Positions 6,671 through 21,484 of a DNA stretch of 64,000 nucleotides are shown piece by piece. Origin of the DNA: an uncultured bacterium (GTDB taxonomy: Bacteria > Hinthialibacterota > Hinthialibacteria > Hinthialibacterales > Hinthialibacteraceae); the NCBI GenBank assembly GCA_964556895.1, contig CAZKYC010000006.1, positions 25,099-89,098 of the forward strand, read 5' to 3'. The translations under genes were made by a program, and so were the position numbers. The notes beneath the pieces are model-generated. The model had not been told where the DNA came from. It made no database searches and saw nothing but the letters and a program-made list of their open reading frames with translations. How positions within the stretch are numbered: the first letter of the stretch is position 1; the number at the start of each line of letters is the position of its first letter.

Positions 6671-7855
6671 GTGTTTCATCTCTCACAGCGTATGGAATCC
6701 GTCCAGGATCCGGTGATCCCCATCATCGGGCGAATGGTGCGTGAGAATCGCGGTACAATCAATTTTGGCCAGGGCGTCGCCCATTACCCTCCGCCCCAGG
6801 AAGCGCTCGACGCCTACAATCAATTTCTCAGCGACCCAGCGAACCATAGATACCACGCGGTTGACGGCATCCCCCAATTCAAACAAACCTTGATCAACAA
6901 ACTTCAGTCTGAAAACAACATCAAACTGAACACCGCTAAGGGCGGCAAAGCGCGCCTATGCGTCACCGCAGGCGGCAATATGGCGTTTTTACACGCGGTG
7001 ACAGCGATTACTGACCCCGGCGATGAGATCATTGTACTCACGCCGTTCTATTTCAACCACGAAATGGCGGTGCGAATCGCTGATTGCAGGCCAGTCTTCG
7101 CCGCGACCGATGAGAATTTTCAGCCTGACATCGACGCAATTTTAGACGCAATCACTGAGCGGACGAAAGCGGTCCTCACGGTGTCGCCAAACAACCCGAC
7201 TGGCGCGGTGTATCCTGAGTCAACCCTACGCGCGATTAACAAACTGTGTCTTGAACGCAGCATCTATCACATTCACGATGAGGCCTATGAGTATTTCACC
7301 TACAACGACGCTACCCATTTCTCGCCGGGCTCAATTGATCACGCAAACCAACACACCATTTCGCTCTTTTCGTTCTCAAAGAGTTACGGCTTCGCGGGGT
7401 GGCGCGTCGGGTATATGACCTTTCCCGCCCGGCTCGAAACCGCTATTCATAAAATTCAAGATACCAACCTCATTTGCCCGCCGATTGTCTCTCAATACGC
7501 CGCGATGGGGGCGCTTGAAGCCGGGGGAACATATTGCAAACAGTTTTCGCGATCCTACAATACAGTTCGAGGCCAATTGTTGAACGAGTTTGAAGAGTTA
7601 CACGACAAAATCACAATTCCACCAGCTGACGGCGCATTTTATTTCTTCCTAAAGATCAACACATCCATGGCGCCGATGGATTTAGCCAAGCGCCTGATTC
7701 TTGAACATAAGGTTGCGTTGATGCCCGGCCACGCATTCGGCATGGATAAGGGCTGCTACCTGCGCTTATCGTATGGCGCGTTGGACGCAGCCCAGGCGGC
7801 AGAAGGCGCCTCCAGGCTCAAACAAGGGTTACGCACACTATTGAGGAGCGATTAA
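6671..7855 (+). CDS. Class I/II pyridoxal-phosphate-dependent aminotransferase
   Basis: 394 aa; SPNNPTG block and SFSKSYGFAGWRVGY (PLP-lysine motif); GTG start 6 nt after AAGAGG. Confidence 0.85.
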   Translation: MFHLSQRMESVQDPVIPIIGRMVRENRGTINFGQGVAHYPPPQEALDAYNQFLSDPANHRYHAVDGIPQFKQTLINKLQSENNIKLNTAKGGKARLCVTAGGNMAFLHAVTAITDPGDEIIVLTPFYFNHEMAVRIADCRPVFAATDENFQPDIDAILDAITERTKAVLTVSPNNPTGAVYPESTLRAINKLCLERSIYHIHDEAYEYFTYNDATHFSPGSIDHANQHTISLFSFSKSYGFAGWRVGYMTFPARLETAIHKIQDTNLICPPIVSQYAAMGALEAGGTYCKQFSRSYNTVRGQLLNEFEELHDKITIPPADGAFYFFLKINTSMAPMDLAKRLILEHKVALMPGHAFGMDKGCYLRLSYGALDAAQAAEGASRLKQGLRTLLRSD

Positions 7856-7857
7856 CC

Positions 7858-8637
7858 GTGGACGTATTCGGCGTGCAACTTAACATGCAATGGGAAAACA
7901 AACCCGCGAATTATGAGAGAGTAAAATCGCTGCTGGCCCAACAAACCATTACGCCAAATAGTTTGATTGTCTTGCCTGAGATGTTCGCGACTGGCTTCAG
8001 CATGAACCTGACTGATATTCACGAACCTGACTCCGGCCCAACCGCGCAGTTTTTAAGTACACTCGCTCAAGACTCCAAATCTAGTGTTGTTGGCGGTTGT
8101 GTCGGGCTTGGCGACGATCAAAAAGGGCGCAACCAGGCGCTTTGTTTTGGCCCCGATGGCGGCGAAGTTGCGCGTTACACCAAGATGCACCCATTCACTT
8201 TCGGCGGCGAAACCAAACACTACACCCCTGGAGATGAGATCATTCTATTTCAATGGGGCGAATTCACCGTGGCGCCGTTTATTTGTTATGACTTGCGGTT
8301 TCCTGAAATTTTTCGTCATGCGACGCAGATGGGCGCCAATGTTTTTCTTGTGATTGCCTGTTGGCCTCAGGCGCGCGACGCCCATTGGATGGCGCTGCTG
8401 CGCGCCCGCGCTATTGAAAACCAATCATATGTGGTTGGCGTAAACCGCTGTGGCAGCGACCCTAAACTGAAATACTCAGGCCGCAGCCAGATGATTGATC
8501 CGATGGGAAATGTGCTATCTGATGCACAAAGCGAAGAAACCATCATCAACGCAAAACTTGATGTTGGCATGTTGAACCAATATCGAAGCGACTTCCCCGT
8601 CTTACAAGATATACGTGAAGAGTATCGCCCTGAATAG
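7858..8637 (+). CDS. Carbon-nitrogen hydrolase, omega-amidase (YafV/Nit)-like
   Basis: Glu-Lys-Cys triad context: VLPEMF, YTKMHPF, FICYDLRFPE; GTG start 2 nt after the aminotransferase stop, GAGGAG upstream. Confidence 0.8.
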   Translation: MDVFGVQLNMQWENKPANYERVKSLLAQQTITPNSLIVLPEMFATGFSMNLTDIHEPDSGPTAQFLSTLAQDSKSSVVGGCVGLGDDQKGRNQALCFGPDGGEVARYTKMHPFTFGGETKHYTPGDEIILFQWGEFTVAPFICYDLRFPEIFRHATQMGANVFLVIACWPQARDAHWMALLRARAIENQSYVVGVNRCGSDPKLKYSGRSQMIDPMGNVLSDAQSEETIINAKLDVGMLNQYRSDFPVLQDIREEYRPE

Positions 8638-10843: not shown

Positions 10844-12163
10844 ATGAATAAGCCCAAAGGGGCTGTAACCGCCTGGTTAGAACGATCCCCCAATTTCGTT
10901 TTCGTCATTTATGCCATCACAGCGGCTTTCTGTGTCTATTTTTGTATGTACGCATACAGAAAACCCTGGTCAGCCGCCACCTTCGACGGCGCCAGCTGGG
11001 AAGCGTTTAAATACTGGGCGGGCGTTAGTCAGATTCTGGGCTATGCGCTGTCAAAATTTGTCGGCATCAAAATCTGCTCCGAAATCAGCCACGCCAAACG
11101 CGCCATCGCCATCATTGGTTTCATTTTTGTTGCTGAGTTCGCTTTATTGCTGTTCGCCGTCGTTCCAGAGAATCTCAAAATCGCCGCTATCTTTTTAAAT
11201 GGCATCCCCCTTGGGATGATCTGGGGGTTAGTGGTCAGTTTTCTCGAAGGCCGACGCACATCTGAAATTCTGCTCGCCGGATTGAGTTGTTCATTTATTG
11301 TCTCAAGCGGCATGGTCAAAGACTTTGGCCGCTGGCTGATAATGTCTTGGGACGTCACCGATTACTGGATGCCCTTTGTCACGGGCTTGTGCTTCTTGGC
11401 CCCGCTGATTTTCTTCGTCTGGATGTTAAGCCAGCTGCCCGAACCAAACTACAATGATGAGGATGAACGCACCCGCCGCGAGCCGATGAACGCCCAACAA
11501 CGCATTGAGTTCTTCAAATCATTCCTGCCCGGCATGATCATGCTGTTGGTTGCATATTTCTTCCTGACGGCCTACCGCGACTACCGTGACACCTTCGGTA
11601 TCGAAGTATTCGTCACAATGGGCTATGAGAACGAATCGGGCCTTTTCACACGCGCCGATCTTCCCGTCGCGTTTGGCGTATTGGTCTGCTTAGGCGCTTT
11701 GAACGCAATCAAAAATAACAAATGGGGCCTCATCGGCGCTTACGCCATCATGGCGGGCGGTACGACATTATTAGGCGTCGGCACCCTGCTTTATGACTTT
11801 GGCATGATTACAGGACTCACCTGGATGACGCTGACTGGGCTTGGTTCATACTTGGCCTACGTCCCGTATGGTTCCGTATTGTTCGACCGTACCATTGCCC
11901 ACACTCGCGTGGTGGGCACATCTGTTTTTGCCATCTATGTCGCTGACGCCTGCGGCTACACCGGGTCAATCGCCACCATGATCGCCGACTACTATATATT
12001 CCATGAAATCAAACATTTCGAGTTTTTCCACGCCTTCACCTACTTTATGTGTTTCTTAGGGACAATCTTGTTGATCGTAAGTTGTATCTACTTCATCAAA
12101 CGCAGCGAAACCATCCGCCAATCAAACCTAAGCACGTCGAGCCCGGCTCCAACAGAAGCGTAA
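10844..12163 (+). CDS. Polytopic membrane protein, MFS-like (resembles DUF5690 family)
   Basis: 439 aa, about 12 hydrophobic helices; N-terminal FCVYFCMYAYRKPWSAATF pattern recalled from DUF5690 proteins (recollection only). Confidence 0.55.
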   Translation: MNKPKGAVTAWLERSPNFVFVIYAITAAFCVYFCMYAYRKPWSAATFDGASWEAFKYWAGVSQILGYALSKFVGIKICSEISHAKRAIAIIGFIFVAEFALLLFAVVPENLKIAAIFLNGIPLGMIWGLVVSFLEGRRTSEILLAGLSCSFIVSSGMVKDFGRWLIMSWDVTDYWMPFVTGLCFLAPLIFFVWMLSQLPEPNYNDEDERTRREPMNAQQRIEFFKSFLPGMIMLLVAYFFLTAYRDYRDTFGIEVFVTMGYENESGLFTRADLPVAFGVLVCLGALNAIKNNKWGLIGAYAIMAGGTTLLGVGTLLYDFGMITGLTWMTLTGLGSYLAYVPYGSVLFDRTIAHTRVVGTSVFAIYVADACGYTGSIATMIADYYIFHEIKHFEFFHAFTYFMCFLGTILLIVSCIYFIKRSETIRQSNLSTSSPAPTEA

Positions 12164-12303
12164 ACTAATGTTACTCTATGTGAAATCTCTGCAAATTATT
12201 TAATACTATTTTCATCAATTCGTTTAACTCCCCCCCCTTCTAACCGATAACTATGGTGTAGTTATTTTATTCTTAGAGGGCGACGAAACAGGGAGGTTTC
12301 ACC

Positions 12304-12759
12304 ATGATGAATCCATTGATTAGCCGATGGACAATTGCAGACGTTTATGAACACACAGGAATTAACTGTTATAATCTTGGCGACTTAGAAGATGCAAAGA
12401 TTATGCTTCTTTCCGCAGTGGAGCATGGCGAATCAGAAGACGACGACGCAGAATTTATGGTTAGCAAGTTTCACAACCTGGCGGTCGTTTACTTCGAACT
12501 CAATGAATACAAGAAGTCTGATCTCTTCTTTCACAAAGCACTAAAGTGTTTTGTCGAAAATCCAAGCATGGATGCTGAAAAGTTGACTCTGCTGCTCAAC
12601 AACTATTCATTGTTGATGGAGCAACGAAATGAGTCGGTTCTTTCTGAAGCGTTCAGCATCTGCGCCGAGTTTGTCAGCGACCACTGGTTTGAGGCAAAAA
12701 AGAAAATCGATTTTTCTCTCGAAGATCAAAACGTTGCAGCGCTCATGAATGTAGCCTAA
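12304..12759 (+). CDS. Hypothetical protein with TPR-like helical repeats
   Basis: 151 aa; GGGAGG SD 7 nt upstream; NLAVVYFELNEYKKSDLFFHKALKCF repeat-like segment; AT-rich gene. Confidence 0.55.
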   Translation: MMNPLISRWTIADVYEHTGINCYNLGDLEDAKIMLLSAVEHGESEDDDAEFMVSKFHNLAVVYFELNEYKKSDLFFHKALKCFVENPSMDAEKLTLLLNNYSLLMEQRNESVLSEAFSICAEFVSDHWFEAKKKIDFSLEDQNVAALMNVA

Positions 12760-12785
12760 CGAATTCCACGAACCGTTATGAAAAA

Positions 12786-12814
12786 GGCGTACTGGATTCA
12801 GTACGCCTTTTTTT
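12786..12814. terminator. Bidirectional rho-independent terminator
   Basis: GGCGTACTG / CAGTACGCC 9-bp stem, GATT loop, flanked by AAAAA (5') and TTTTTTT (3'); sits between convergent gene ends at 12759 and 12827. Confidence 0.85.
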
Positions 12815-12826
12815 GTTCCGTTTTGA

Positions 12827-13150
12827 TTACTGTATGGCGGGCGGTCGAGGGATGTTCACTACCCGCTCAGGCGCAAAACTTTTTTCTTCGGCCAACGGGT
12901 CAAATAAGAGGCATTTACAGCGTGTCCCGATTAGATTGGGCACAAACTCTTTTGCCGCCACTTCGACAATATCGTATTCCGCCCGAAAGAAGGTTTGCTC
13001 AAGCCATGAGTACGCGCGCGCCTTGCTCGACCAGACAGGCACAGCGATATCACCGCCCGGCAAATCAAAATAGAGCGGACTTACTTGGGCGGACGGAGAG
13101 TCGTTTTTACCAATAATAAAAACGGCTGGCGGCAGCTGGTCGATTTCCAT
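12827..13150 (-). CDS. Hypothetical 107-aa protein, last gene of the metal-transport operon
   Basis: Starts 30 nt after the permease stop on the same strand and ends just before the terminator; no family recognised. Confidence 0.5.
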   Translation of the reverse strand: MEIDQLPPAVFIIGKNDSPSAQVSPLYFDLPGGDIAVPVWSSKARAYSWLEQTFFRAEYDIVEVAAKEFVPNLIGTRCKCLLFDPLAEEKSFAPERVVNIPRPPAIQ

Positions 13151-13180
13151 AATTGAATCGTCATTCTACCACCAAATTGA

Positions 13181-14452
13181 TCAGCGCGGGATTGTCTTGC
13201 CATGTGGGTCGACTTCTGGGTGTTCCATCTCACGGTCTAACTTTTCAGTTAAGTCTGGGGTGATATGGTGTTCGACGCGGTCAGCCGGATCGTGTGTATG
13301 GTCAGCGGCGTAGCCAATGCCTTCGAGGTATGATTCATACAAACGGTGGCGTTTGATGAGTTCGATGGCGTCGTTATTGCCTGACTTGGTCAGTTCAAAT
13401 TTCAAATTGCCTTCTTCTAATAATCCTTTTCGCACCAACCGCCGGGCGGTCTTCTCCGCATCGGGCAACAGCCATTGCTGGGCCTCGCTGATATCCATCA
13501 CGCTGAATGGAAGAGCAAAGCCCGCTTCAACCTGGCGCCCCGCCCAAAGCAATACGTCTTCTTCAGCGACCCGGTTTGACAGGTTTCGTCTCGACAACCA
13601 GCGGGTAAACACGCCGTGTGTTGGAGAGAAAACCAATGCCACAGCAAACAACAGCCCTGACACAGCGCCCATTGCTCCGGCGATCGAACTATCAAGCCAA
13701 ATCGCTGAGAAGAAACCCAGGATCGAAGTCAGCGAACCCGCCAGAACCGAATAGAGCAACATCAACGACAAGCGGTCAGTCAATAAATAGGCTGTCGCGG
13801 CAGGCGCGATCAACATCGCCACGACAAGTATGACGCCGACGCTTTCAAACGCGCCCACCGTGGTGACCGCAACCAACGTCATCAACAGATAGTGCATCAC
13901 TGTGACGGGAATCCCCACCGCCGCCGCCATCGCCGGGTCAAACGCGCACAATTTGAATTCTTTGTAAAACAAACTCACGACGACACTATTGAGCAACAAC
14001 AAACCGCCGTTGACCCATAACGCTCTGGGGCCGAGATAGAACTCACCCAGCACAAATGAATCAAGCGGAGTCAGCGCAATCTCGCCCTCTAATACGCAAT
14101 CGGTATCCAAGTGGACGCCTTCGCCAAACAGAGAAACGCCAATCACGCCAAGGGCGAACAGCGCGGTGAACGTGACGCCAAGCGCCGCGTCATGTTGAAC
14201 GCCGCCGCTATTGAGGGTTTGAATAATGAATGTCGTTAAAATTCCAATCAGGGCCGCTCCAAGAAACATCCAGAAGATCGACATTGAGTTGCTCAACAAA
14301 AATGCGATGACGATTCCCGGAAGAACCGCGTGGCTGATGGCGTCACCCAACATCGCCATACGGCGCAGCACCAAAAAGCAGCCCAGCATCCCACAGGCGG
14401 ACGCAGCGAAGGCCCCGGTTAAGATGATCCAAAATCCACTTAAGAAATCCAT
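13181..14452 (-). CDS. Metal ABC transporter permease (ABC-3/TroD-like) fused to a C-terminal DtxR/MntR-like domain
   Basis: About 285 aa of permease helices, then a cytoplasmic tail with a winged helix-turn-helix (wHTH)-like segment (AEKTARRLVRKGLLEEGNLKFELTKSG), KRHRLYESYL and His/Asp/Glu-rich HDPADRVEHHI..DPHGKTIP. Confidence 0.85.
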   Translation of the reverse strand: MDFLSGFWIILTGAFAASACGMLGCFLVLRRMAMLGDAISHAVLPGIVIAFLLSNSMSIFWMFLGAALIGILTTFIIQTLNSGGVQHDAALGVTFTALFALGVIGVSLFGEGVHLDTDCVLEGEIALTPLDSFVLGEFYLGPRALWVNGGLLLLNSVVVSLFYKEFKLCAFDPAMAAAVGIPVTVMHYLLMTLVAVTTVGAFESVGVILVVAMLIAPAATAYLLTDRLSLMLLYSVLAGSLTSILGFFSAIWLDSSIAGAMGAVSGLLFAVALVFSPTHGVFTRWLSRRNLSNRVAEEDVLLWAGRQVEAGFALPFSVMDISEAQQWLLPDAEKTARRLVRKGLLEEGNLKFELTKSGNNDAIELIKRHRLYESYLEGIGYAADHTHDPADRVEHHITPDLTEKLDREMEHPEVDPHGKTIPR

Positions 14453-14467
14453 TGCGTGTTTCCTCTG

Positions 14468-15751
14468 TTAGGCAGTTGCGATCGGGTGCGCAGTAGGTGG
14501 TCGTTCCAGGTTAAGCCCATGGGTGTTTAATAGACGCTCGAGTTGTTTGACCGTCTCAGGCGCCAAGAAGTGTTCGATCAAATCGGCGTCGCGGTCGACA
14601 TGGTCAGATTCAAATTCTTCTTCGTGCATCAGATACATTTCCCATAAACGGTGGTTGCGGGTCACTTGATAGGCCTGTTCCATGCCGCTTTGCGTCAAAC
14701 GAAATGAGCCGTTTTGTTCTTCGACACATTGTTCGTTCATTAATCTGTGCAGGTTTCTCAGCGCTTGGGCTGGCGTTTGCGACCGCAGTGCGGCGATATC
14801 GTTTAAAGGCGCCCATCCGTCCCAGGAACCGTGTCGTTCAGACCATTCATACAACGAGCGAAGTGCATTCTCTCGAGCGACGCGGCGGCGAAGTTTCCAA
14901 ACCCGAATGCCTTTGGCGACCAATCCACGCGCTGGAGCGAAAAGCAGCGATAGCACAAACATCAACGTCGCCGACAATACGATCCACGGGCCGGTTGGCA
15001 TTCGCGGGGCCAGCGCGCTCAAATACACGCCCAGCGCTCCTGACATGCCGCCGAACAGGGCGGATAGCAAGGTCATACGGTGAAGGCGGTCCGTCCAATA
15101 GCGGGCGGCGGCGGCTGGAGTAATCAACATCGCAACCATTAATACAACGCCGACCGCTTGAAGCCCAATGACGACAATCAGAACGATCAAGATGTTGAGC
15201 ATCGCGTCAAGCCAGGCGGATGAAAACCCTAGACTGTCGGCGAACCCTGTGTCAAAGCAAAGCAGTTTCATTTCTTTATAAAGCAACAACGAGAATACAA
15301 TGACAGCGAAGGCGCAAAACGCCATGATATACACATCGCGTCCGACCATCGCCGCCGCCTGCCCAAAAATAAAGGTCTTCAGGCCTGCTTTGTTGCCGCC
15401 GCTGGAATTCAATATGAATGTCAACAACACAATGCCAATCGCGAAGAAAACCGAGAGAACCAGCCCTAAGGCCGCGTCTTCTTTAATGCGCGAATGGCGC
15501 GTAATGAATTGAATGCAAAATGCGCCCAACATGCCGGCGGCGAGCGCGCCCAACATAAAGGCCGGGATTGAACGTTCGCCAACGATCATGTACGCGACGC
15601 ACACGCCGGGAAGCGCCGCATGGGCCAAGGCGTCGCCTAACAGGCTGCGCTTTCTCAGCATGGCGAAACTGCTGAGGATGCCGCTGCACATACCAAGCAG
15701 GACGCACCCAGCCAACACCCATTGAGCATTAATGTCAGTCAAAAAGTTCAT
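14468..15751 (-). CDS. Metal ABC transporter permease (ABC-3/TroC-like) fused to a C-terminal DtxR/MntR-like domain
   Basis: Permease core followed by ..[70 protein letters not shown]..; 4-nt overlap with the upstream ATPase gene. Confidence 0.85.
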
Positions 15752-16593
15752 TGTTGTGGATCAGCCCCGTGTGGTTGGTTAATCGAAACCGCGTCGGCCA
15801 GCTCTGAAATGATGTTGAGGCGCCCGCCGTAGGTCTTACGAAGGTTGTCTTCGTTAAACACCTCTTCAGTCGGGCCAATGGTGATCAGCCGCATGTTGAT
15901 CATTAACACCCAATCAAAATAGTCGCTGACTGTCTGTAAGTCGTGGTGAACCACAAACACGGTCTTGCCCTGGGATTTCAGCGTCTTCAAAATTTTGATA
16001 ATGGCTTTTTCTGTCGCGACGTCGACGCCTGCGAAGGGTTCATCCATAAAATAAACAGTGGAGTTTTGTGCGAGCGCGCGGGCGAGAAACACGCGTTGTT
16101 GTTGGCCACCCGAAAGCTGGCTGATTTGGCGGTTGGCGAAATCAGCCATCCCGACTTGTTTCAAACAGCCCATTGCATACTCTCTGTCACGCCGAGCTGG
16201 ACGGCGAAACCACCCCAAGCGACCATAAACGCCCATTAAGACAACGTCTAACACATCAGTGGGAAAATCCCAGTCGACTGATTCGCGCTGAGGAACATAC
16301 CCAATTTTTTGGCGTTGTTTAGAGATTGGTTCGCCATAACATTTCACCCAGCCGGACGCGGGAGGCACAAGCCCCATCGCTGACTTCAATAACGTCGACT
16401 TGCCCGCCCCGTTGGGGCCGACGATTCCGACTAACACCCCTTCAGGAACAACAAAATCAATGTCCCACAACACGGGTTTGCGGTGATAGGCGACCGTCAG
16501 GTCATGGACCTCAAGCGGCGGCGGATCAGGTACCGCATAAGACGGTGATGGCTTGATATCGTTTGTAGATTCAGCGGTAATAGTCATCAACAA
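15748..16593 (-). CDS. Metal ABC transporter ATP-binding protein (TroB/MntB/ZnuC-like)
   Basis: Walker [10 protein letters not shown], signature LSGGQQQRV, Walker B VYFMDEPF. Confidence 0.9.
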
Positions 16594-16602
16594 GTCTCCA
16601 AC

Positions 16603-17532
16603 TTACTGTAAGGCGTTCACAATTGTGTTCACATTGTGGCGGATCATTCCGATATAGGTTCCTTCTTCCGTCCCGGCGGCGCCCATCGCGTCAGAAAACA
16701 ACTCCCCGCCGATAACAACCTCATGTCCTTTGCCTTTGCAGCCTTCAACCAATGCTTCAATTGACCGGGCCGGGACGCTGGTTTCGACAAACACTGCTTT
16801 TACGTTGCGTTCAACAATAATTTCGATCAATCGCTGAAGGTCTTGCAGTCCAAATTCGCTGACGGTGCTGATGCCTTGCAGGCCCATCACTTCGATGTCA
16901 TAGGCGCGGCCAAAATAGCCAAACGCATCATGGGCGGTGATCAACACGCGTTGTTGTTGAGGGATACTGGCGATTTGTTCTTTGACCCAAACATCGAGTT
17001 CAGCCAGCTGGTTTTGATAGGCTTCGCCATTGTCGCGGTATTCCTGTTCGCCTTCAGGATCGACTTTGACCAGCGCTTCGACCACGGCGGCGACCGCCTG
17101 AGACCACAGACTGACGTCCATCCAAATGTGGGGGTCATAATGGCCTTCATAGTCTGGGTGTGAAAGCAGTAACGATAGTCCAATAGCATCGCCAAACGCA
17201 ACGACAGGTTTGGGGCCGCTTTGCATTTTCTCAAAGATTTCAATCATACGCCCTTCAAGAATCAGCCCATTGTAGAATATCACGTTCGCGCGAGACAATA
17301 GGCCTAAATCGGCAGGCGAAGCTTTGTATAAGTGGGGGTCGACTCCCTCCCCCATCATGTTAATCACTTCGATGCGTTCTCCAGCGACATTGTGGACAAC
17401 ATCGGCGATTTGGGCGATCGTACAAACCGCCCTCAGGTTGCCGTCGTCTATCGGGCCGCCGCAAGAACTGACAATGAACACAATAACTATGAGTGCTATT
17501 TTTTGAATCACAATGGATATCCTCTCCTTCAT
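16603..17532 (-). CDS. Metal ABC transporter substrate-binding lipoprotein (cluster A-I, TroA/MntC/ZnuA-like)
   Basis: MKERISIVIQKIALIVIVFIVSSCGG lipobox; ATG at 17532 overlaps the regulator stop (ATGA); HLYKASP / DPHIWMD metal-site motifs. Confidence 0.85.
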   Translation of the reverse strand: MKERISIVIQKIALIVIVFIVSSCGGPIDDGNLRAVCTIAQIADVVHNVAGERIEVINMMGEGVDPHLYKASPADLGLLSRANVIFYNGLILEGRMIEIFEKMQSGPKPVVAFGDAIGLSLLLSHPDYEGHYDPHIWMDVSLWSQAVAAVVEALVKVDPEGEQEYRDNGEAYQNQLAELDVWVKEQIASIPQQQRVLITAHDAFGYFGRAYDIEVMGLQGISTVSEFGLQDLQRLIEIIVERNVKAVFVETSVPARSIEALVEGCKGKGHEVVIGGELFSDAMGAAGTEEGTYIGMIRHNVNTIVNALQ

Positions 17533-18188
17533 TTTTTCTTCGATTGGACAAACACATTTGACGCGAGGTCGCGTCCGATGGCGCACTCGGCGCCATTGAT
17601 TTTTAGATGGATGGAACCGCCGTACGGCTCTTCTTTCATCATCTGGACTTTAGCGCCCGGCACCAGGCCGACTACATCCATATATTGCAACATGCTTGCG
17701 TCAGAATCATCGACGCGCTGCACCTGGCTAGCCTCGCCGGGTTGCATCGCCATGATTGGTAGAATGGATTGGTCGGGCAACGCGCCATCTTTTGATGGGA
17801 TCGGGTCGCCATGGGGGTCGTGAGTGGGATGCCCCAAAAACTCATCAATTTTCTCTTCGAAAACTTCTGAAATGACATGCTCAAGACGCTCGGCTTCGTC
17901 GTGAACCTGGTCCCAGCTGTAGCCAAGCGCTTTTTGAAGATAGAGCTCAATCAGGCGATGATGGCGAAGAATTTCTAGCGCAATCTTCTCTCCACTTTTG
18001 GTCAACGCCAGACCTGTCGCTCGCGAGTAATTCACCAGTTTTAACGACCGGAGCCGCTTGACCATCTTGGTTACAGCCGCTGGCGACACCGAAAAATTCT
18101 CCGCAAGCATCGAAGGGGTAACGGTGTCGCCATCCCGCCCCATTGAATAGATGGTTTTTAAATAGTCTTCGCCGTTAGAACCTAACAT
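17529..18188 (-). CDS. mntR: DtxR/MntR family metal-dependent transcriptional regulator with C-terminal FeoA/SH3-like domain
   Basis: MLGSNGEDYLKTIYSM.. typical DtxR N-terminus, RHHRLIELYL, HEAERLEH; start moved to M13 (18188, AGGTGG SD) because the ORF-track start lies inside a promoter -10. Confidence 0.85.
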   Translation of the reverse strand: MLGSNGEDYLKTIYSMGRDGDTVTPSMLAENFSVSPAAVTKMVKRLRSLKLVNYSRATGLALTKSGEKIALEILRHHRLIELYLQKALGYSWDQVHDEAERLEHVISEVFEEKIDEFLGHPTHDPHGDPIPSKDGALPDQSILPIMAMQPGEASQVQRVDDSDASMLQYMDVVGLVPGAKVQMMKEEPYGGSIHLKINGAECAIGRDLASNVFVQSKKK

Positions 18189-18214
18189 AACACCACCTGG
18201 GTTAACTAGAGTAT

Positions 18215-18248
18215 AATTTAACATTAACCAAAGTTAAATTTATGTCAA
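18215..18248 (-). promoter_or_regulatory. Sigma-70 promoter with overlapping palindromic operator (probable MntR box)
   Basis: Minus strand TTGACA (18248-18243), 16-nt spacer, TAATGT (18226-18221); inverted repeat AATTTAAC (18215-18222) / GTTAAATT (18233-18240) with inner TTAAC-N4-GTTAA spans the spacer and -10. Confidence 0.55.
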
Positions 18249-18277: not shown

Positions 18278-19315
18278 TTAATATGGAATCGGTGAGATCA
18301 TACACATCAGCGCAAATTGAATTAGAAGAAGAATTCCAATCCATTGATTGACTGCGGATTGAGGCTCAGAGTAGGTGGATAAGAACTTCATTCGGGCAAC
18401 GCGTGGAAAATGAAATTCAACAAAATGGTTGAGCGCCCAGCCTTTCATTTGGCTGTCTGATTGGAGAAACATCTGTTGAATCATTACGCTGACATATTTT
18501 CGGCGATCAATGCCAAATAAGCGCATTGCTTCGAGGTCGCGAGCGATTTCGCGGTGATAGTCAAACCAGCGGTCCGCAAGTATTCGAACCGGATGCGCAT
18601 GAAACATGACCAAACAAAGAAACCGAAGCAGGTTTAACCAGATGTCTCTGTTTTGGATATGCGCCAGTTCATGCGCAATTACCACATCAAGCGTATCTTC
18701 ATCTCCCTCGTCAATTAACGACTGGGGAAGAATGATCGTATGGCTATTCAAAAGGCCAATCGTGCACGGTGAAAAGGAACCTTGAAATGTTTTCAACTTC
18801 GTAACAAAGGGCAAACCGAGACAACTCGATAAATGGGCAAGTCTCTCAAACGCAATCCCACTATCAACGATTGGCAACTTTCGTAAACGCCTATGAAATA
18901 CGGCGAATCGATACAATTGAACAACCGCAACCTGAACCGACAACAATACCCAGACAAGAATAAAAGCACTTAAACAGAGGTGAAGGCCCTCACTTGGATC
19001 CAACCCCCCCACGCAATGGAAAACTTGAAAAACAAAAAAAACCATCTCAGCGGAGTTGCCCATAGTTGATTGAAGATGAATAGGATCGTCAAAAACGCGC
19101 CCGCCTAGTATATAGGAAGGAGAAAACACTCGAGGATGGGTTTGTAATTCCAAAAGCCCAACAGGTAATAGCAACTTCACTAACACAATCAACCACACCC
19201 AATAACACAAAGACGGTTTGATATGGTATAACAGTAGGGAGAAACCAAGCGCCAAGGCAAGCAGAAAAAAGGCATGAAAGGAAGAGAAATAAAGAAATAG
19301 GCTAGAGATGTTCAT
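18278..19315 (-). CDS. M56 family (BlaR1-like) membrane zinc metallopeptidase, no sensor domain
   Basis: HELAHIQNRD HExxH motif between hydrophobic helices; ATG at 19315 preferred over the TTG at 19360; AT-rich gene. Confidence 0.75.
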   Translation of the reverse strand: MNISSLFLYFSSFHAFFLLALALGFSLLLYHIKPSLCYWVWLIVLVKLLLPVGLLELQTHPRVFSPSYILGGRVFDDPIHLQSTMGNSAEMVFFVFQVFHCVGGLDPSEGLHLCLSAFILVWVLLSVQVAVVQLYRFAVFHRRLRKLPIVDSGIAFERLAHLSSCLGLPFVTKLKTFQGSFSPCTIGLLNSHTIILPQSLIDEGDEDTLDVVIAHELAHIQNRDIWLNLLRFLCLVMFHAHPVRILADRWFDYHREIARDLEAMRLFGIDRRKYVSVMIQQMFLQSDSQMKGWALNHFVEFHFPRVARMKFLSTYSEPQSAVNQWIGILLLIQFALMCMISPIPY

Positions 19316-19629
19316 ACTTGATGCTCTTATCTCGTTACTACAATTAAGAAGAAAAATCAACTAGATGATTAAACGTCGATACAACCTAACGGAAAAGATA
19401 ACTGCTCATTTGGTCTTATTTGAACATTACCACAATACAATAAAACTACTTAATACGATATTGATATTTTTTACCTGTTCAATTTCTAGCAAAAAAAAAT
19501 CAGGATTTACCGTAATTGGGATTTCAAATCTCTAAAACCGGACAAAATAAGTTATCTCTAGTGAAACATTGCATGACTTATTGTGCATAAACCATTATTT
19601 ATAAGTTATTTATAACGCCTGTTCAAAGT

Positions 19630-20062: not shown

Positions 20063-21484
20063 TTACTGATCAATATTTTCGCGCATCTTCTGTTTGTAGC
20101 CTTCGACGCCGGTTTGGATATAGGTCTCTTCATCACCCACCCGGCGTTTGACAGAGATCGGATCAATATGAAGCGACTGTAAGCGCCCTTTCACAGCGAC
20201 CATGTCCATCAATACGCGCATTAAGGCAAACACTTCGTAGGTGTCGCGTTTCGGGAACTCAATTATCGCTGATGGAACCGCCTTATCGACAAAGTCTTCG
20301 TAAGCGCCTCTCATTGATGCGACCTGGGCTTGTTGCAGCGTCTTGCCCTTGAAGACGCTCAGGCTGCCTTGAAGCGGTGCGTTTTGGGGGACGGTGATAT
20401 CTTCGCCAAATGATTTTGGGGTGAGAAACATCACCACCTTGTCACGTGGGCCGTTGATCACGCCATTCAACAGCGAGTGGTTGCCGGTTGGGCCTGTCGT
20501 CGATATGACGTTAAGCCCCTCGCCGCGCTCTTGGACGGATTCTTCATACAACTGAACGAACCAGTCGCCCAGCTTGACATTATCAAAGTAGGGATAAAAC
20601 ACCATGCAGGATTTGTTGCAGCCCCATTCGGCGATATGGAGAAACTCAGCCAGCCGATAAGCGGGGTTCTTTTCAATGGGAGCGGTCAAAAACGTTTGAT
20701 GAGCGGCGCCATATCCCTTCATCGCATCTTGAAGGCGCGCAAGCGGATCGTTTGACGCGCTGACCGCTAAAAATAACAACCCGACAGGCGACGCAAACGA
20801 AAAACGCCCGCCCACTCCATCAGGAACAGGCAACAGCGCCATAAATTCACCCTGCCGGCTTGATTGCATTTGATACAAAAGGCTCTTGTCGTTCAGGCCT
20901 GTTGTTGCGACGGTCTGGCCCATCCAGTCGTCGCCAAGGGCGTCAGCGAGAACCATTGCCGCCAGCGCAGTTTCAGCAGTGGTTCCACTTTTACTGACGA
21001 TGTTAATGATCGTTTTGTCTAACAGGCCTCGCAGTTTCAAAACATCCAACAAGCCTCTAAGACGCAAGGGGTCGAAGGTGTCGCCTGTAAAATAGACTTC
21101 AGGCGGGCCATCAATCTCTCCCGCGCTGACCAGGTCGTTGTGATAGGGATGGTTTAGCAGATCATGCAGGGTGCGGGCGCCAAGGTCCGAACCGCCGATG
21201 CCGATTGTGATAAACACTTTAGCTTTCTCTCGAACCTGGTTGGCAATGTCGGCAATTGATTCGAGCGATGCAGAATCTGGATGTTCAACAGGCGTCTGGT
21301 GACACCATGTCCAGGCGCGCAGCCGCTGGACGAGCTTTTCGTAGCCTTCGTTGTCTTCTTCGACAAACTCTTGTTCAATCGCCATCAGGCTGGCTCGGAG
21401 CTGCTCGCTCCAGGCGCCAGGGACTGATTTATAAAGCAAACCGGCGCCAGCCAGATCAACATGAAATGAATCGCGGATTGGCAT
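20063..21484 (-). CDS. pgi: Glucose-6-phosphate isomerase
   Basis: 473 aa; GIGGSDLGARTL and SKSGTTAET SIS-domain motifs. Confidence 0.9.
   Translation of the reverse strand: MPIRDSFHVDLAGAGLLYKSVPGAWSEQLRASLMAIEQEFVEEDNEGYEKLVQRLRAWTWCHQTPVEHPDSASLESIADIANQVREKAKVFITIGIGGSDLGARTLHDLLNHPYHNDLVSAGEIDGPPEVYFTGDTFDPLRLRGLLDVLKLRGLLDKTIINIVSKSGTTAETALAAMVLADALGDDWMGQTVATTGLNDKSLLYQMQSSRQGEFMALLPVPDGVGGRFSFASPVGLLFLAVSASNDPLARLQDAMKGYGAAHQTFLTAPIEKNPAYRLAEFLHIAEWGCNKSCMVFYPYFDNVKLGDWFVQLYEESVQERGEGLNVISTTGPTGNHSLLNGVINGPRDKVVMFLTPKSFGEDITVPQNAPLQGSLSVFKGKTLQQAQVASMRGAYEDFVDKAVPSAIIEFPKRDTYEVFALMRVLMDMVAVKGRLQSLHIDPISVKRRVGDEETYIQTGVEGYKQKMRENIDQ

Follow-up and report, generated by a model that had tools for sequence, protein, structure and literature searches.

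The only homologue of these fused permeases to have been studied experimentally is YtgC-YtgR of Chlamydia trachomatis (CT069), in which an ABC-3 permease and a C-terminal DtxR-family module share one ORF within an operon, ytgABCD, for a binding protein, an ATPase and two permeases (PMC5599777). Only the first permease is fused in Chlamydia, with YtgD left unfused; no free DtxR regulator is described, and the tail undergoes cleavage from the permease and has been demonstrated to act as a repressor (PMC5599777, PMC7755916). An earlier note on the DNA analysed here had drawn this comparison, and it is a fair one: a review confirms both the fusion and the cleavage and places single permease-DtxR fusions in 11 phyla (PMC5599777). 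A second relative is the troABCD-troR operon of Treponema pallidum and T. denticola. It encodes a binding protein and an ATPase, two ABC-3 permeases and a regulator of the DtxR type, and its promoter bears a dyad-symmetric operator (PMC2628430), much as a palindrome lies at the promoter of our locus. The tro permeases are not described with metal-binding DtxR domains, unlike those presented here. The tro regulator gene also stands last and its product is not known to have an FeoA/SH3 domain, whereas our mntR is first and encodes FeoA.

The window, which is the whole 64-kb stretch of DNA that was analysed, holds a Tro/Mnt-type (cluster A-I, ABC-3) Mn/Fe/Zn importer operon from a relative of Candidatus Hinthialibacter (Table 1). 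The minus-strand layout proposed in the earlier note was borne out from mntR through a TroA-like substrate-binding protein (SBP), an ATPase, two ABC-3 permeases and a 107-aa ORF to a bidirectional terminator, with all six ORFs recovered at the coordinates in Table 1. The ATGA overlaps are likewise real: the SBP start codon overlaps the mntR stop codon at 17529-17532 and the ATPase stop codon overlaps the permease 1 start at 15748-15751. The terminator serves both the operon and a convergent TPR gene at 12304-12759.

Table 1. Features of the importer operon and its promoter, in window coordinates.
Feature	Position	Strand	Basis or description
Promoter/operator region	18201..18248	(-)	promoter scan + sequence
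TTGACA	18248-18243	minus-strand reading	promoter/operator region
-35-like TTAACT	18237-18232	minus-strand reading	promoter/operator region
14-bp palindrome TTAACTTTGGTTAA	18237-18224	minus-strand reading	overlaps promoter
-10 TATACT	18215-18210	minus-strand reading	promoter/operator region
Additional TAGTTAAC half-site	18208-18201	minus-strand reading	promoter/operator region
mntR	17529..18188	(-)	free three-domain DtxR/MntR-family regulator: wHTH + metal/dimerisation + FeoA/SH3-like
TroA-like cluster A-I substrate-binding lipoprotein	16603..17532	(-)	PF01297 3.6e-79
ABC ATPase subunit	15748..16593	(-)	PF00005 2e-29
Permease 1 membrane domain (ABC-3), residues 1-276	14924..15751	(-)	PF00950 1.1e-66
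Permease 1 C-terminal tail, residues 277-427	14468..14923	(-)	PF02742 7.5e-13; diverged two-domain DtxR-like module
Permease 2 membrane domain (ABC-3), residues 1-280	13613..14452	(-)	PF00950 1e-45
Permease 2 C-terminal tail, residues 281-423	13181..13612	(-)	PF02742 1.3e-19; two-domain DtxR-like module
107-aa ORF, between permease 2 and terminator	12827..13150	(-), co-directional	no assigned family
Bidirectional intrinsic terminator: A-run, 15-pair stem, T-run	12780..12813	(.)	terminator scan + sequence

The SBP has a VSSC lipobox, and its closest solved relative is T. pallidum TroA (1toa, E 2.4e-84), whose motif blocks GVDPHLY, DPHIW, TAHDAFGYF and LFSDAMG are kept. The ATPase, which probably starts at the ATG at 16587, scores 236 and 224 bits against the NCBIfam Mn/Fe ABC ATP-binding models, each under the equivalog cut-off. 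Permease 1 matches the Pfam ABC-3 model over residues 10-271, and the best structural match of both membrane domains is the S. pneumoniae Mn importer PsaBC(A) (7kyp, 31-33% identity), with Foldseek TM scores of 0.85, normalised to the target, for permease 1 and 0.76 for permease 2. As in PsaBC(A), the D-x3-H motif is invariant, as D40 and H44 across 33 homologues of permease 1 and D37 and H41 across 31 of permease 2. PsaC, however, forms a homodimer whose short permease chains (258-290 residues in the targets) have no cytoplasmic tail, whereas the importer of the window has a permease heterodimer in which both subunits are tailed. The 107-aa ORF has no match in Pfam or NCBIfam and has a homologue in only one of 87 related loci, that of Ca. 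Hinthialibacter antarcticus (L002; 204 bits); it is lineage-specific and lies outside the conserved cassette.

Each permease ends in a complete two-domain DtxR module, a winged helix followed by a metal/dimerisation domain without SH3/FeoA, since Pfam, PDB sequence alignments and AlphaFold/Foldseek models all agree on this assignment. The claim that both permeases bear DtxR-like C-terminal modules was upheld by HMM searches for the dimerisation domain PF02742, found at residues 353-410 of permease 1 (48.7 bits, with the cut-off at 27; E 7.5e-13) and 355-423 of permease 2 (E 1.3e-19, 70.4 bits). The N-terminal DNA-binding model PF01325 matched neither tail even at E<=10, so of the two DtxR domains HMM searches recover only the second, although a winged helix is present in each tail, as alignment shows for permease 1 and AlphaFold for both. 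The tails align to ScaR, SloR, IdeR and DtxR, with E 1.6e-9 for permease 1 against ScaR residues 4-117 and 5e-9 for permease 2 against IdeR residues 35-133, and AlphaFold gives both the topology a1-a2-a3-b-b-a4-a5-a6. The permease 2 tail is modelled at pLDDT 84-93 and matches the two-domain structures of DR2539, IdeR and DtxR, superposing on the DR2539-DNA complex (8pw0) with TM 0.80 and an rmsd of 2.6 A over 131 columns. The permease 1 tail is modelled at pLDDT of about 84-88 up to residue 370 but low around a5, and its Foldseek matches to DtxR-family folds are weak (E 2e-3 to 3e-2, rmsd 6-8 A). The motifs and His/Asp/Glu-rich stretches that the earlier note had picked out fall on DtxR ligand positions 79, 83, 98, 102, 105 and 106. 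Residues at ligand positions are N295, H367, E371, D386, D390, E393 and H394 in permease 1 and D299, H369, E373, H387, D391, E394 and H395 in permease 2, whose tail terminates in the family motif DPHGxxIP. We compared these with the free Mn-responsive DtxR-family repressors DR2539 of D. radiodurans, SloR, ScaR, MtsR, IdeR and DtxR. The Asp/Glu/Glu/His plus His/Glu/His ligand set of DR2539 (PMC6300522) is also carried by the window's MntR and by the permease 2 tail. Unlike the free repressors, both tails lack SH3/FeoA, are anchored at the N-terminus to a membrane helix and have an unconserved recognition helix.

The window contains one member of a widespread conserved cassette that recurs in many uncultured bacteria. 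The 120 best homologues of permease 2 all combine ABC-3 with PF02742, as do 111 of the 120 best for permease 1 (43 longest-contig sizes are common to the two lists). Among 68 complete related loci, a sample skewed towards relatives of the query, both permeases are fused in 30, the first only in 27, the second only in 4 and neither in 7. The whole operon is in view in 27 of the fused/fused loci, a subset with the same skew; an adjacent free DtxR-like gene is present in 18 of these and absent in the other 9, and the window's exact five-gene order recurs in all four double-fused neighbourhoods inspected (L002, L003, L004 and L007). With these counts, the idea that the arrangement is unusual does not hold. 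The related suggestion that it is undescribed survives in part: single fusions are published, but the double fusion may still lack a description, as our literature search, whose coverage lay outside the primary YtgC papers, found no paper describing it. What sets the window apart from the described YtgC is the fusion of both permeases and the presence of a free regulator with three domains, whose own operator is conserved. The possibility that a frameshift or assembly error ran a permease gene together with a small, separate gene for a regulator is ruled out for practical purposes because the same uninterrupted architecture and near-constant tether recur across dozens of independent assemblies from many sources; the junction is also modelled as a continuous helix, and no evidence supporting such an artefact was found.

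The third DtxR module proposed in the earlier note is indeed a free DtxR/FeoA regulator. Its product matches PF01325 (5.5e-15), PF02742 (6.9e-32) and FeoA (7.2e-16), and among NCBIfam models it scores highest against the MntR model NF047407 (219.6 bits, under the equivalog cut-off of 350). The mechanical ORF reaches 18224 and has the -10 hexamer downstream of its first ATG; the likely start is the ATG at 18188, 3' of an SD-like AGGTGG. In the ORF numbering, its ligand-position residues are D20, H89, E93, H108, E112, E115 and H116. The operator suggested at 18215-18240 holds a genuine palindrome, at 18224-18237, that is kept in relatives: it recurs at the equivalent position in L002 (perfect, TTAACCTAGGTTAA), L007 and L009 and in degenerate forms in L004, L037 and L070. 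In the 64-kb window, TTAACYNNRGTTAA has one match against 0.31 expected. The regulator recognition helix has an identity of 0.77 across the four operons whose TTAACC..GGTTAA operator is clearest, and its ...AAVTKM... becomes ...ASV(T/S)DM... in the group that has TTAGATTAATCTAA as its operator. The tail recognition helices reach only 0.25-0.39 within one operator group. We infer that the free regulator is the operator reader, as its helix is conserved and co-varies with operator type and those of the tails do not. All three modules are thus present as claimed, but the implied picture of three repressors on one operator is doubtful because only the regulator helix behaves in this way.

The main rival to a sensing role for the tails is that one or both are YtgR-like, released by proteolysis or acting while tethered to the membrane as homo- or heterodimeric, metal-dependent DNA-binding repressors that add to or partly duplicate free MntR, possibly at other targets. 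Chlamydia provides the precedent, since in YtgC the C-terminal domain is released by cleavage and acts as a repressor of the ytg promoter (PMC5599777, PMC7755916). The complete wHTH and dimerisation fold is kept in both tails through deep divergence, the permease 2 tail superposes closely on DNA-bound DR2539, and Arg is common in the tails at DtxR positions 47 and 50. Some second permeases retain the winged helix only, without the metal domain, so it has a function of its own, which could still be to bind DNA. Tails and regulators are not distinguished by the net charge of their DNA-binding regions, and the 9 of 27 fused/fused operons without an adjacent free regulator speak for repressor tails and against sensor tails. 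We nevertheless regard YtgR-like tails as the less likely reading. Both recognition helices vary freely even among operons with a common operator, which sets them apart from YtgR as described, and in the same 13 operons their identities are 0.24 and 0.29 against 0.48 for the free regulator. Metal-domain identities in these operons are 0.49 and 0.43 against 0.61. The S/T at DtxR position 42 is kept in 13 of 13 regulators and lost in the tails, in which PF01325 finds no match, and the free regulator is already encoded in 18 of 27 cases. Finally, the tether, which runs from the membrane-domain end to DtxR position 10, is a short helix of almost constant length rather than a flexible cleavable linker: it measures 20 residues in 32 of 34 second-permease tails and 19 in 47 of 58 first-permease tails, and AlphaFold models it as a single continuous helix (residues 281-309 of permease 2 and 277-307 of permease 1).

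The metal site follows a different pattern, and the tails look to have been selected for metal binding rather than DNA reading. In the fused/fused loci, second-permease tails have D at position 10 in 29 of 30 and H79, E83, H98, E105 and H106 in 30 of 30 each; first-permease tails have H79 in 27, E83 in 29, D98 in 27, D102 in 27, E105 in 28 and H106 in 28 of 30. Such (near-)invariance, even where overall identity falls to about 40%, would not be expected unless metal binding were under selection, which makes it improbable that the tails are left over from an old fusion and now serve only to fold, assemble or stabilise the permease heterodimer. That role better suits Firmicute-type first-permease tails such as that of Tumebacillus avium, which keep a fold-level match with the ligands lost (Q79, G102, D105 and A106), and the diverged permease 1 tail of the window, weakly matched by Foldseek and modelled at low pLDDT around a5, leans the same way. 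PtsG sequesters Mlc and MalK sequesters MalT, and by analogy the tail dimerisation domains could pair with free MntR and hold it at the membrane according to transporter or metal state. The dimerisation domain is common to all three modules, which occur together in the 18 loci above, and the permease 2 tail has an identity of 0.30 to the free regulator and 0.28 to the permease 1 tail. This purely inferential model is also a poor prospect: it has no need of the invariant metal ligands, the nine operons without an adjacent regulator count against it, and the tails are already 1:1 in one complex, so that they are most likely each other's partners.

At a rough probability of 0.45, we favor the reading in which free MntR represses the operon and the tails are cytoplasmic metal sensors that feed back on the transporter. 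Metal-loaded MntR would bind the promoter-overlapping palindrome and turn the whole operon off, while the tails would sense cytoplasmic metal in cis rather than act as sequence-specific repressors of this operator. Helix a1 of each tail would supply one residue at a ligand position (N295 in permease 1, D299 in permease 2) and would be extended by the tether into the last membrane helix, so metal bound between a1 and a5, with the two tails of one transporter probably forming a DtxR-like heterodimer, would act mechanically on the membrane domains or ATPases. Uptake would then be throttled at metal sufficiency. In MetNI and ModBC, trans-inhibition likewise uses a substrate-binding cytoplasmic domain, which is a C-terminal extension of the ATPase unrelated to DtxR. 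The likeness would be one of functional logic only, with a bound substrate shutting the importer, and it cuts both ways, as the known trans-inhibited ABC importers bear the sensor on the ATPase and the window has a DtxR-type domain on the permease. In a gel-shift assay with 18215-18240, MntR is predicted to bind because it alone has a conserved, operator-matched helix; with the tails, the predicted result is negative or non-specific. If the sensor reading is true, this family of importers would place fast post-translational feedback on top of slower transcriptional repression.

The operon genes were found in the layout claimed by the earlier note, six minus-strand ORFs within 12827-18224 running from mntR through the genes for a TroA-like binding protein, an ATPase, and two permeases to a 107-aa ORF, and the ATGA overlaps that it reported between mntR and the binding protein gene and between the ATPase and permease 1 genes are both seen in the sequence. 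The free regulator, the product of mntR, scores above the cut-off for each of the Pfam models PF01325, PF02742, and PF04023. Its most likely start is the ATG at 18188, because a Shine-Dalgarno-like AGGTGG precedes this codon and the best −10 hexamer lies downstream of the first ATG of the ORF at 18224. The operon has the components of a cluster A-I/ABC-3 importer, namely a TroA-family binding protein, two ABC-3 membrane subunits, and an ABC ATPase. By Foldseek, the membrane parts match the fold of the PsaBC manganese importer with TM scores of 0.85 (permease 1) and 0.76 (permease 2). Treponema pallidum TroA is the closest solved relative of the binding protein (E 2.4e-84), which keeps the TroA motif blocks GVDPHLY, DPHIW, TAHDAFGYF, and LFSDAMG, the blocks that hold the four TroA ligands. 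None of the transporter subunits reached an NCBIfam equivalog cut-off, so the transported metal stays Mn, Fe, or Zn, with all three of which the TroA-like ligand motifs appear compatible. Among 87 related loci, a homologue of the 107-aa ORF occurs in Candidatus Hinthialibacter antarcticus alone, and this gene is therefore lineage-specific and outside the conserved cassette.

Features of the operon and its surroundings, with positions in the window
Feature	Position	Strand	Length	Description
DUF5690 membrane protein and small TPR protein genes	10844-12759	+		Flank
Terminator	12780-12813			A-run/stem/T-run, seen in sequence
107-aa ORF, operon end	12827-13150	-	107 aa	No family match in Pfam or NCBIfam
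Permease 2		-	423 aa	ABC-3 (PF00950 1e-45); PF02742 at residues 355-423 (E 1.3e-19)
Permease 1		-	427 aa	ABC-3 at residues 10-271 (PF00950 1.1e-66); PF02742 at residues 353-410 (E 7.5e-13)
ATPase		-	281 aa	ABC type, PF00005 2e-29
Binding protein		-		ZnuA/TroA family, PF01297 3.6e-79
Free regulator	17529-18188	-	231 aa (ORF)	PF01325 + PF02742 + FeoA
Additional half-site	18201-18208	-		TAGTTAAC
Best −10 hexamer	18215-18210			TATACT
Palindrome	18237-18224	- (reading)		TTAACTTTGGTTAA
BlaR1-like M56 peptidase ORF	18278-19360	-	360 aa	TTG start, HELAH motif, PF05569 1.8e-18, low-GC stretch (0.42)
Glucose-6-phosphate isomerase (PGI) gene	20063-21484	-		Flank

The C-terminal extensions of the permeases (hereafter tails; residues 277-427 of permease 1 and 281-423 of permease 2) are DtxR-like as had been proposed, with PF02742, PDB alignments, AlphaFold models, and Foldseek in agreement. 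The domain searches on which that proposal was to be judged gave a divided answer: the dimerisation domain PF02742 matched both tails, but the DNA-binding model PF01325 matched neither, even at E<=10, so the winged helix was traced through PDB alignment and structure prediction instead. The permease 1 tail aligns from helix 1 onwards to ScaR 4-117 (E 1.6e-9) and SloR 5-118 (E 3.3e-8), and the permease 2 tail aligns to IdeR 35-133 and DtxR 30-133. AlphaFold models built on 31-33 homologues give both tails an a1-a2-a3-b-b-a4-a5-a6 topology, with pLDDT values of 84-93 across permease 2 residues 281-423 and about 84-88 in permease 1 up to residue 370. The permease 2 tail superimposes on the DR2539-DNA complex (TM 0.80, rmsd 2.6 Å, 131 columns) and also finds IdeR, DtxR, and SloR by Foldseek. 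The permease 1 tail is the more diverged of the two, since its Foldseek match to DtxR-family folds is weak (E 2e-3 to 3e-2, rmsd 6-8 Å). By these alignments and models, the winged-helix fold is present in both tails despite the silence of PF01325, whereas the third (SH3/FeoA) domain of the free regulator is absent from both. The net charge of the a2-to-wing region was tried as a discriminator between tails and regulator and rejected, with means of 2.0, 3.3, and 3.9 that did not separate.

Metal ligands were assigned from an alignment covering 13 operons with a complete set of modules (both tails and the free regulator), in which DtxR and Bacillus subtilis MntR sequences served as numbering rulers alone. 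The free regulator and the permease 2 tail carry Asp/Glu/Glu/His plus His/Glu/His, the set quoted for the Mn-dependent repressor DR2539 (PMC6300522). Across the loci in which both permeases are fused, second-permease tails hold D10 in 29/30 cases and H79, E83, H98, E105, and H106 in 30/30 each; first-permease tails hold H79, D98, and D102 in 27/30 each, E105 and H106 in 28/30 each, and E83 in 29/30. The ligand positions of both tails are thus nearly invariant, and metal binding is predicted for both. A purely structural role for the tails is one of the weaker alternatives; the loss of ligands from Firmicute-type tails speaks for it, and it has to be set beside this conservation.

Residues at the metal-ligand positions of the three modules (free regulator in ORF numbering)
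DtxR position	Permease 1	Permease 2	Free regulator
10	N295	D299	D20
79	H367	H369	H89
83	E371	E373	E93
98	D386	H387	H108
102	D390	D391	E112
105	E393	E394	E115
106	H394	H395	H116

The earlier note considered the arrangement unusual and undescribed, and of these two descriptions only the second may hold. Related loci were gathered by contig look-ups and a metagenome scan with alignment (a single-protein genome-contig scan gave 1 locus), and 87 of them plus the window were classified with HMMs built for the purpose. In the 68 loci with both permeases complete, both are fused in 30, the first alone in 27, the second alone in 4, and neither in 7, counts that do not give prevalence because the sampling favored loci related to the fused query. 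The complete operon is visible in 27 of the fused/fused loci, and 18 of these have a free DtxR-like ORF next to it; the order regulator(FeoA)-binding protein-ATPase-fused permease-fused permease recurs in three double-fused loci (L003, L004, L007). ABC-3 is combined with PF02742 in all of the best 120 homologues of permease 2 and in 111 of the best 120 of permease 1, in proteins of about 420-450 aa, and 43 longest-contig sizes common to the two lists point to gene pairs. Named sources of fused proteins include Armatimonadota, an Actinomycetota MAG, Abditibacteriota, Omnitrophota (the single phylum name added by cluster look-up), and Krumholzibacteriia; in Armatimonadota and the Actinomycetota MAG the two permeases probably share one contig, because both give an equal longest-contig size. 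The three-module operon is a recurrent cassette. A frameshift or assembly artefact, the concern raised when the fusions were first noticed, is excluded by the recurrence of the same architecture in many independent assemblies. A phmmer search with the tail only against 1.84 billion representatives returned 2962 matches at E<=1e-3, 237 at <=1e-10, and none at <=1e-30; it was rejected as a census of the architecture because its best 150 matches mix full-length fusions, fragments, and free regulators.

The closest named relative is Candidatus Hinthialibacter antarcticus of the phylum Hinthialibacterota (87-88% identity). Its locus L002 shares the gene order of the window, down to the 107-aa ORF and the TPR, DUF5690, and PGI genes on either side. 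The same flank genes are syntenic on its contig JAVCCE010000039, which places the window in the genus Hinthialibacter or close to it. The cassette varies among the related loci. The four loci with only the second permease fused (L022, L034, L047, L049) keep all ligand positions, and the existence of this class means that the two fusions can arise independently. In seven loci (L042, L051, L061, L062, L064, L071, L079) the second permease carries roughly 90 additional C-terminal residues whose match to the tail profiles is confined to the first half (positions ~5-81, E 5e-9 to 1e-4), which corresponds to the winged helix without the metal/dimerisation domain. The permease C-terminus therefore has at least four states: no extension, winged helix only, full tail with ligands, and full tail without ligands. 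In the Firmicute-type loci (L005 from Tumebacillus avium, and L006), a long permease is paired with a short one. In L005 the long one is the first permease (7001-8287, CP021434); its tail matches the profile at 146 bits and has lost its ligands (Q79, G102, D105, A106), with no PF02742 match on record for the protein. Bacillus subtilis MntC is a long permease of about 435 aa that may resemble it.

Which of the three modules reads the operator can be approached through the upstream region. The palindrome upstream of mntR lies between the promoter hexamers, overlapping the −35-like one of the best match in a promoter scan, and it is the single match to TTAACYNNRGTTAA in the 64 kb window, with 0.31 expected. 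The palindrome recurs in the corresponding position in L002 (perfect, TTAACCTAGGTTAA), L007, and L009, and in degenerate forms in L004, L037, and L070. In six loci with the first permease alone fused (L050, L052, L066, L068, L074, L081), TTAGATTAATCTAA replaces the TTAACC-type operator upstream of the regulator gene; a similar element recurs further upstream in L074 and L081. The additional half-site directly downstream of the −10 hexamer is kept in L002 and may be a second regulator binding site. The regulator recognition helix (S-P/S-A-A-V-T-K-M-V/I-K-R-L) is 0.77 identical among the four operons whose TTAACC-type operator is clearest, and in regulators of the TTAGAT group it is 0.63 identical with a systematic K-to-D change, so that K or D helix and operator type look like a clean specificity pair. 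Within one operator group, the recognition helices of the tails are only 0.25-0.39 identical. For the same 13 operons, recognition-helix identity is 0.48 in the regulator and 0.24 and 0.29 in the tails, and metal-domain identity is 0.61 and 0.49 and 0.43, respectively. Because the regulator helix is conserved and tracks operator type while the tail helices vary, the free regulator is the predicted operator-binding protein, and the tails seem not to be under selection for reading a conserved DNA sequence. The suggestion that the tails are repressors of the operon is, on this evidence, doubtful.

The connection of the tails to the membrane is equally regular. From the end of the membrane-domain profile to DtxR position 10 there are 20 residues in 32/34 second-permease tails and 19 residues in 47/58 first-permease tails (range 19-23), and the AlphaFold models show this tether and a1 as a single continuous helix. 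In DtxR-family proteins, as in the structures of DtxR, IdeR, and MntR, the residue at position 10 of a1 joins positions 102, 105, and 106 in holding the primary metal. A fixed helical link from a1 to the last membrane helix, as modeled, would be a requirement for mechanical coupling and would be unlike a flexible, cleavable linker, of which the fixed 19-20-residue tether gives no hint.

These features bear on the main rival, in which the tails would act as YtgR-like repressors, whether released or still tethered. YtgR of Chlamydia trachomatis is synthesized as part of a fusion with the permease YtgC, from which it is freed by cleavage, and it acts as a repressor at the ytg promoter (PMC5599777; PMC7755916 agrees). 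The proposed homology of the tails to this type of fusion holds: in both permeases here, the ABC-3 part and a DtxR-family module belong to a single chain. The Chlamydia precedent, the retained winged-helix fold, and the winged-helix-only extensions on some second permeases all favor the rival. For YtgC-YtgR, a single fused permease is described and no separate regulator, whereas the window has both permeases fused and a free regulator whose recognition helix tracks the operator. The DNA-binding domain of the tails is present as a fold but unmatched by PF01325 and poorly conserved in its recognition helix. We consider YtgR-like tails unlikely. At 28-30 kDa (PMC5599777, PMC7755916), the Chlamydia cleavage product exceeds the size of a DtxR module of two domains, a hint that the cut falls within the permease part. 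In the window, the M56 peptidase ORF between the PGI gene and mntR was considered as a tail-releasing protease and rejected. L002 has no such gene called at the same position, its PGI-mntR stretch of about 1.2 kb being empty of called genes, and in L003, L004, and L007 unrelated genes directly precede that of the regulator. Between the M56 ORF and the PGI gene there is no ORF of at least 90 aa for a BlaI-like partner.

In the best-supported reading, to which we assign a probability of about 0.45, MntR would repress the metal uptake operon at the palindrome, and the two tails, probably paired 1:1 within one transporter, would sense cytoplasmic Mn, Fe, or Zn and, when metal-loaded, slow the importer. 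More tentatively, the tails could form a DtxR-like heterodimer that acts as a metal-operated brake through the rigid link from a1 to the membrane helix. That the tails sequester MntR is a weaker alternative. The five listed readings sum to about nine tenths of the probability, and the remainder is left for mixed or unforeseen functions. A heterodimer brake would be trans-inhibition built into the permeases, which to our knowledge is not described for metal ABC importers. In MetNI and ModBC, trans-inhibition depends on a regulatory domain at the ATPase C-terminus; the ATPase of the window has ABC/AAA-type Pfam matches alone, and the extra modules sit on the permeases instead. With their nearly invariant ligand positions, the tails are candidates for a cytoplasmic regulatory domain that binds the transported substrate, as in MetNI and ModBC.

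Permease-DtxR fusions are known to be widespread in genomes, in 11 phyla according to Thompson et al. as cited in a review (PMC5599777), and are functionally unexplored outside Chlamydia, in which the tail is cleaved off as a repressor. Within the literature searched, which did not cover the primary YtgC papers, neither a double fusion nor a fusion beside a free regulator was described; the term permease-repressor appeared in Chlamydia studies only, and reviews of Deinococcus and of metallostasis made no mention of permease fusions. What is added here is that the fusion is often on both permeases, usually beside a free regulator that appears to read the operator, and that metal sites and a rigid tether are conserved in the tails when the DNA-reading helix is not. 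If the tails are ordinary repressors, the operon simply adds another case to an architecture that is common and poorly annotated. If they form a brake, a transcription-factor fold would have taken on the role of an allosteric sensor across many bacterial phyla, and Chlamydia YtgR would either have returned to DNA binding secondarily or have retained it. Mn, Fe, or Zn uptake in many bacteria may then be controlled post-translationally by a sensor built into the transporter, with consequences for the question of how cells escape metal overload more quickly than transcription permits and for the interpretation of YtgR in a pathogen.
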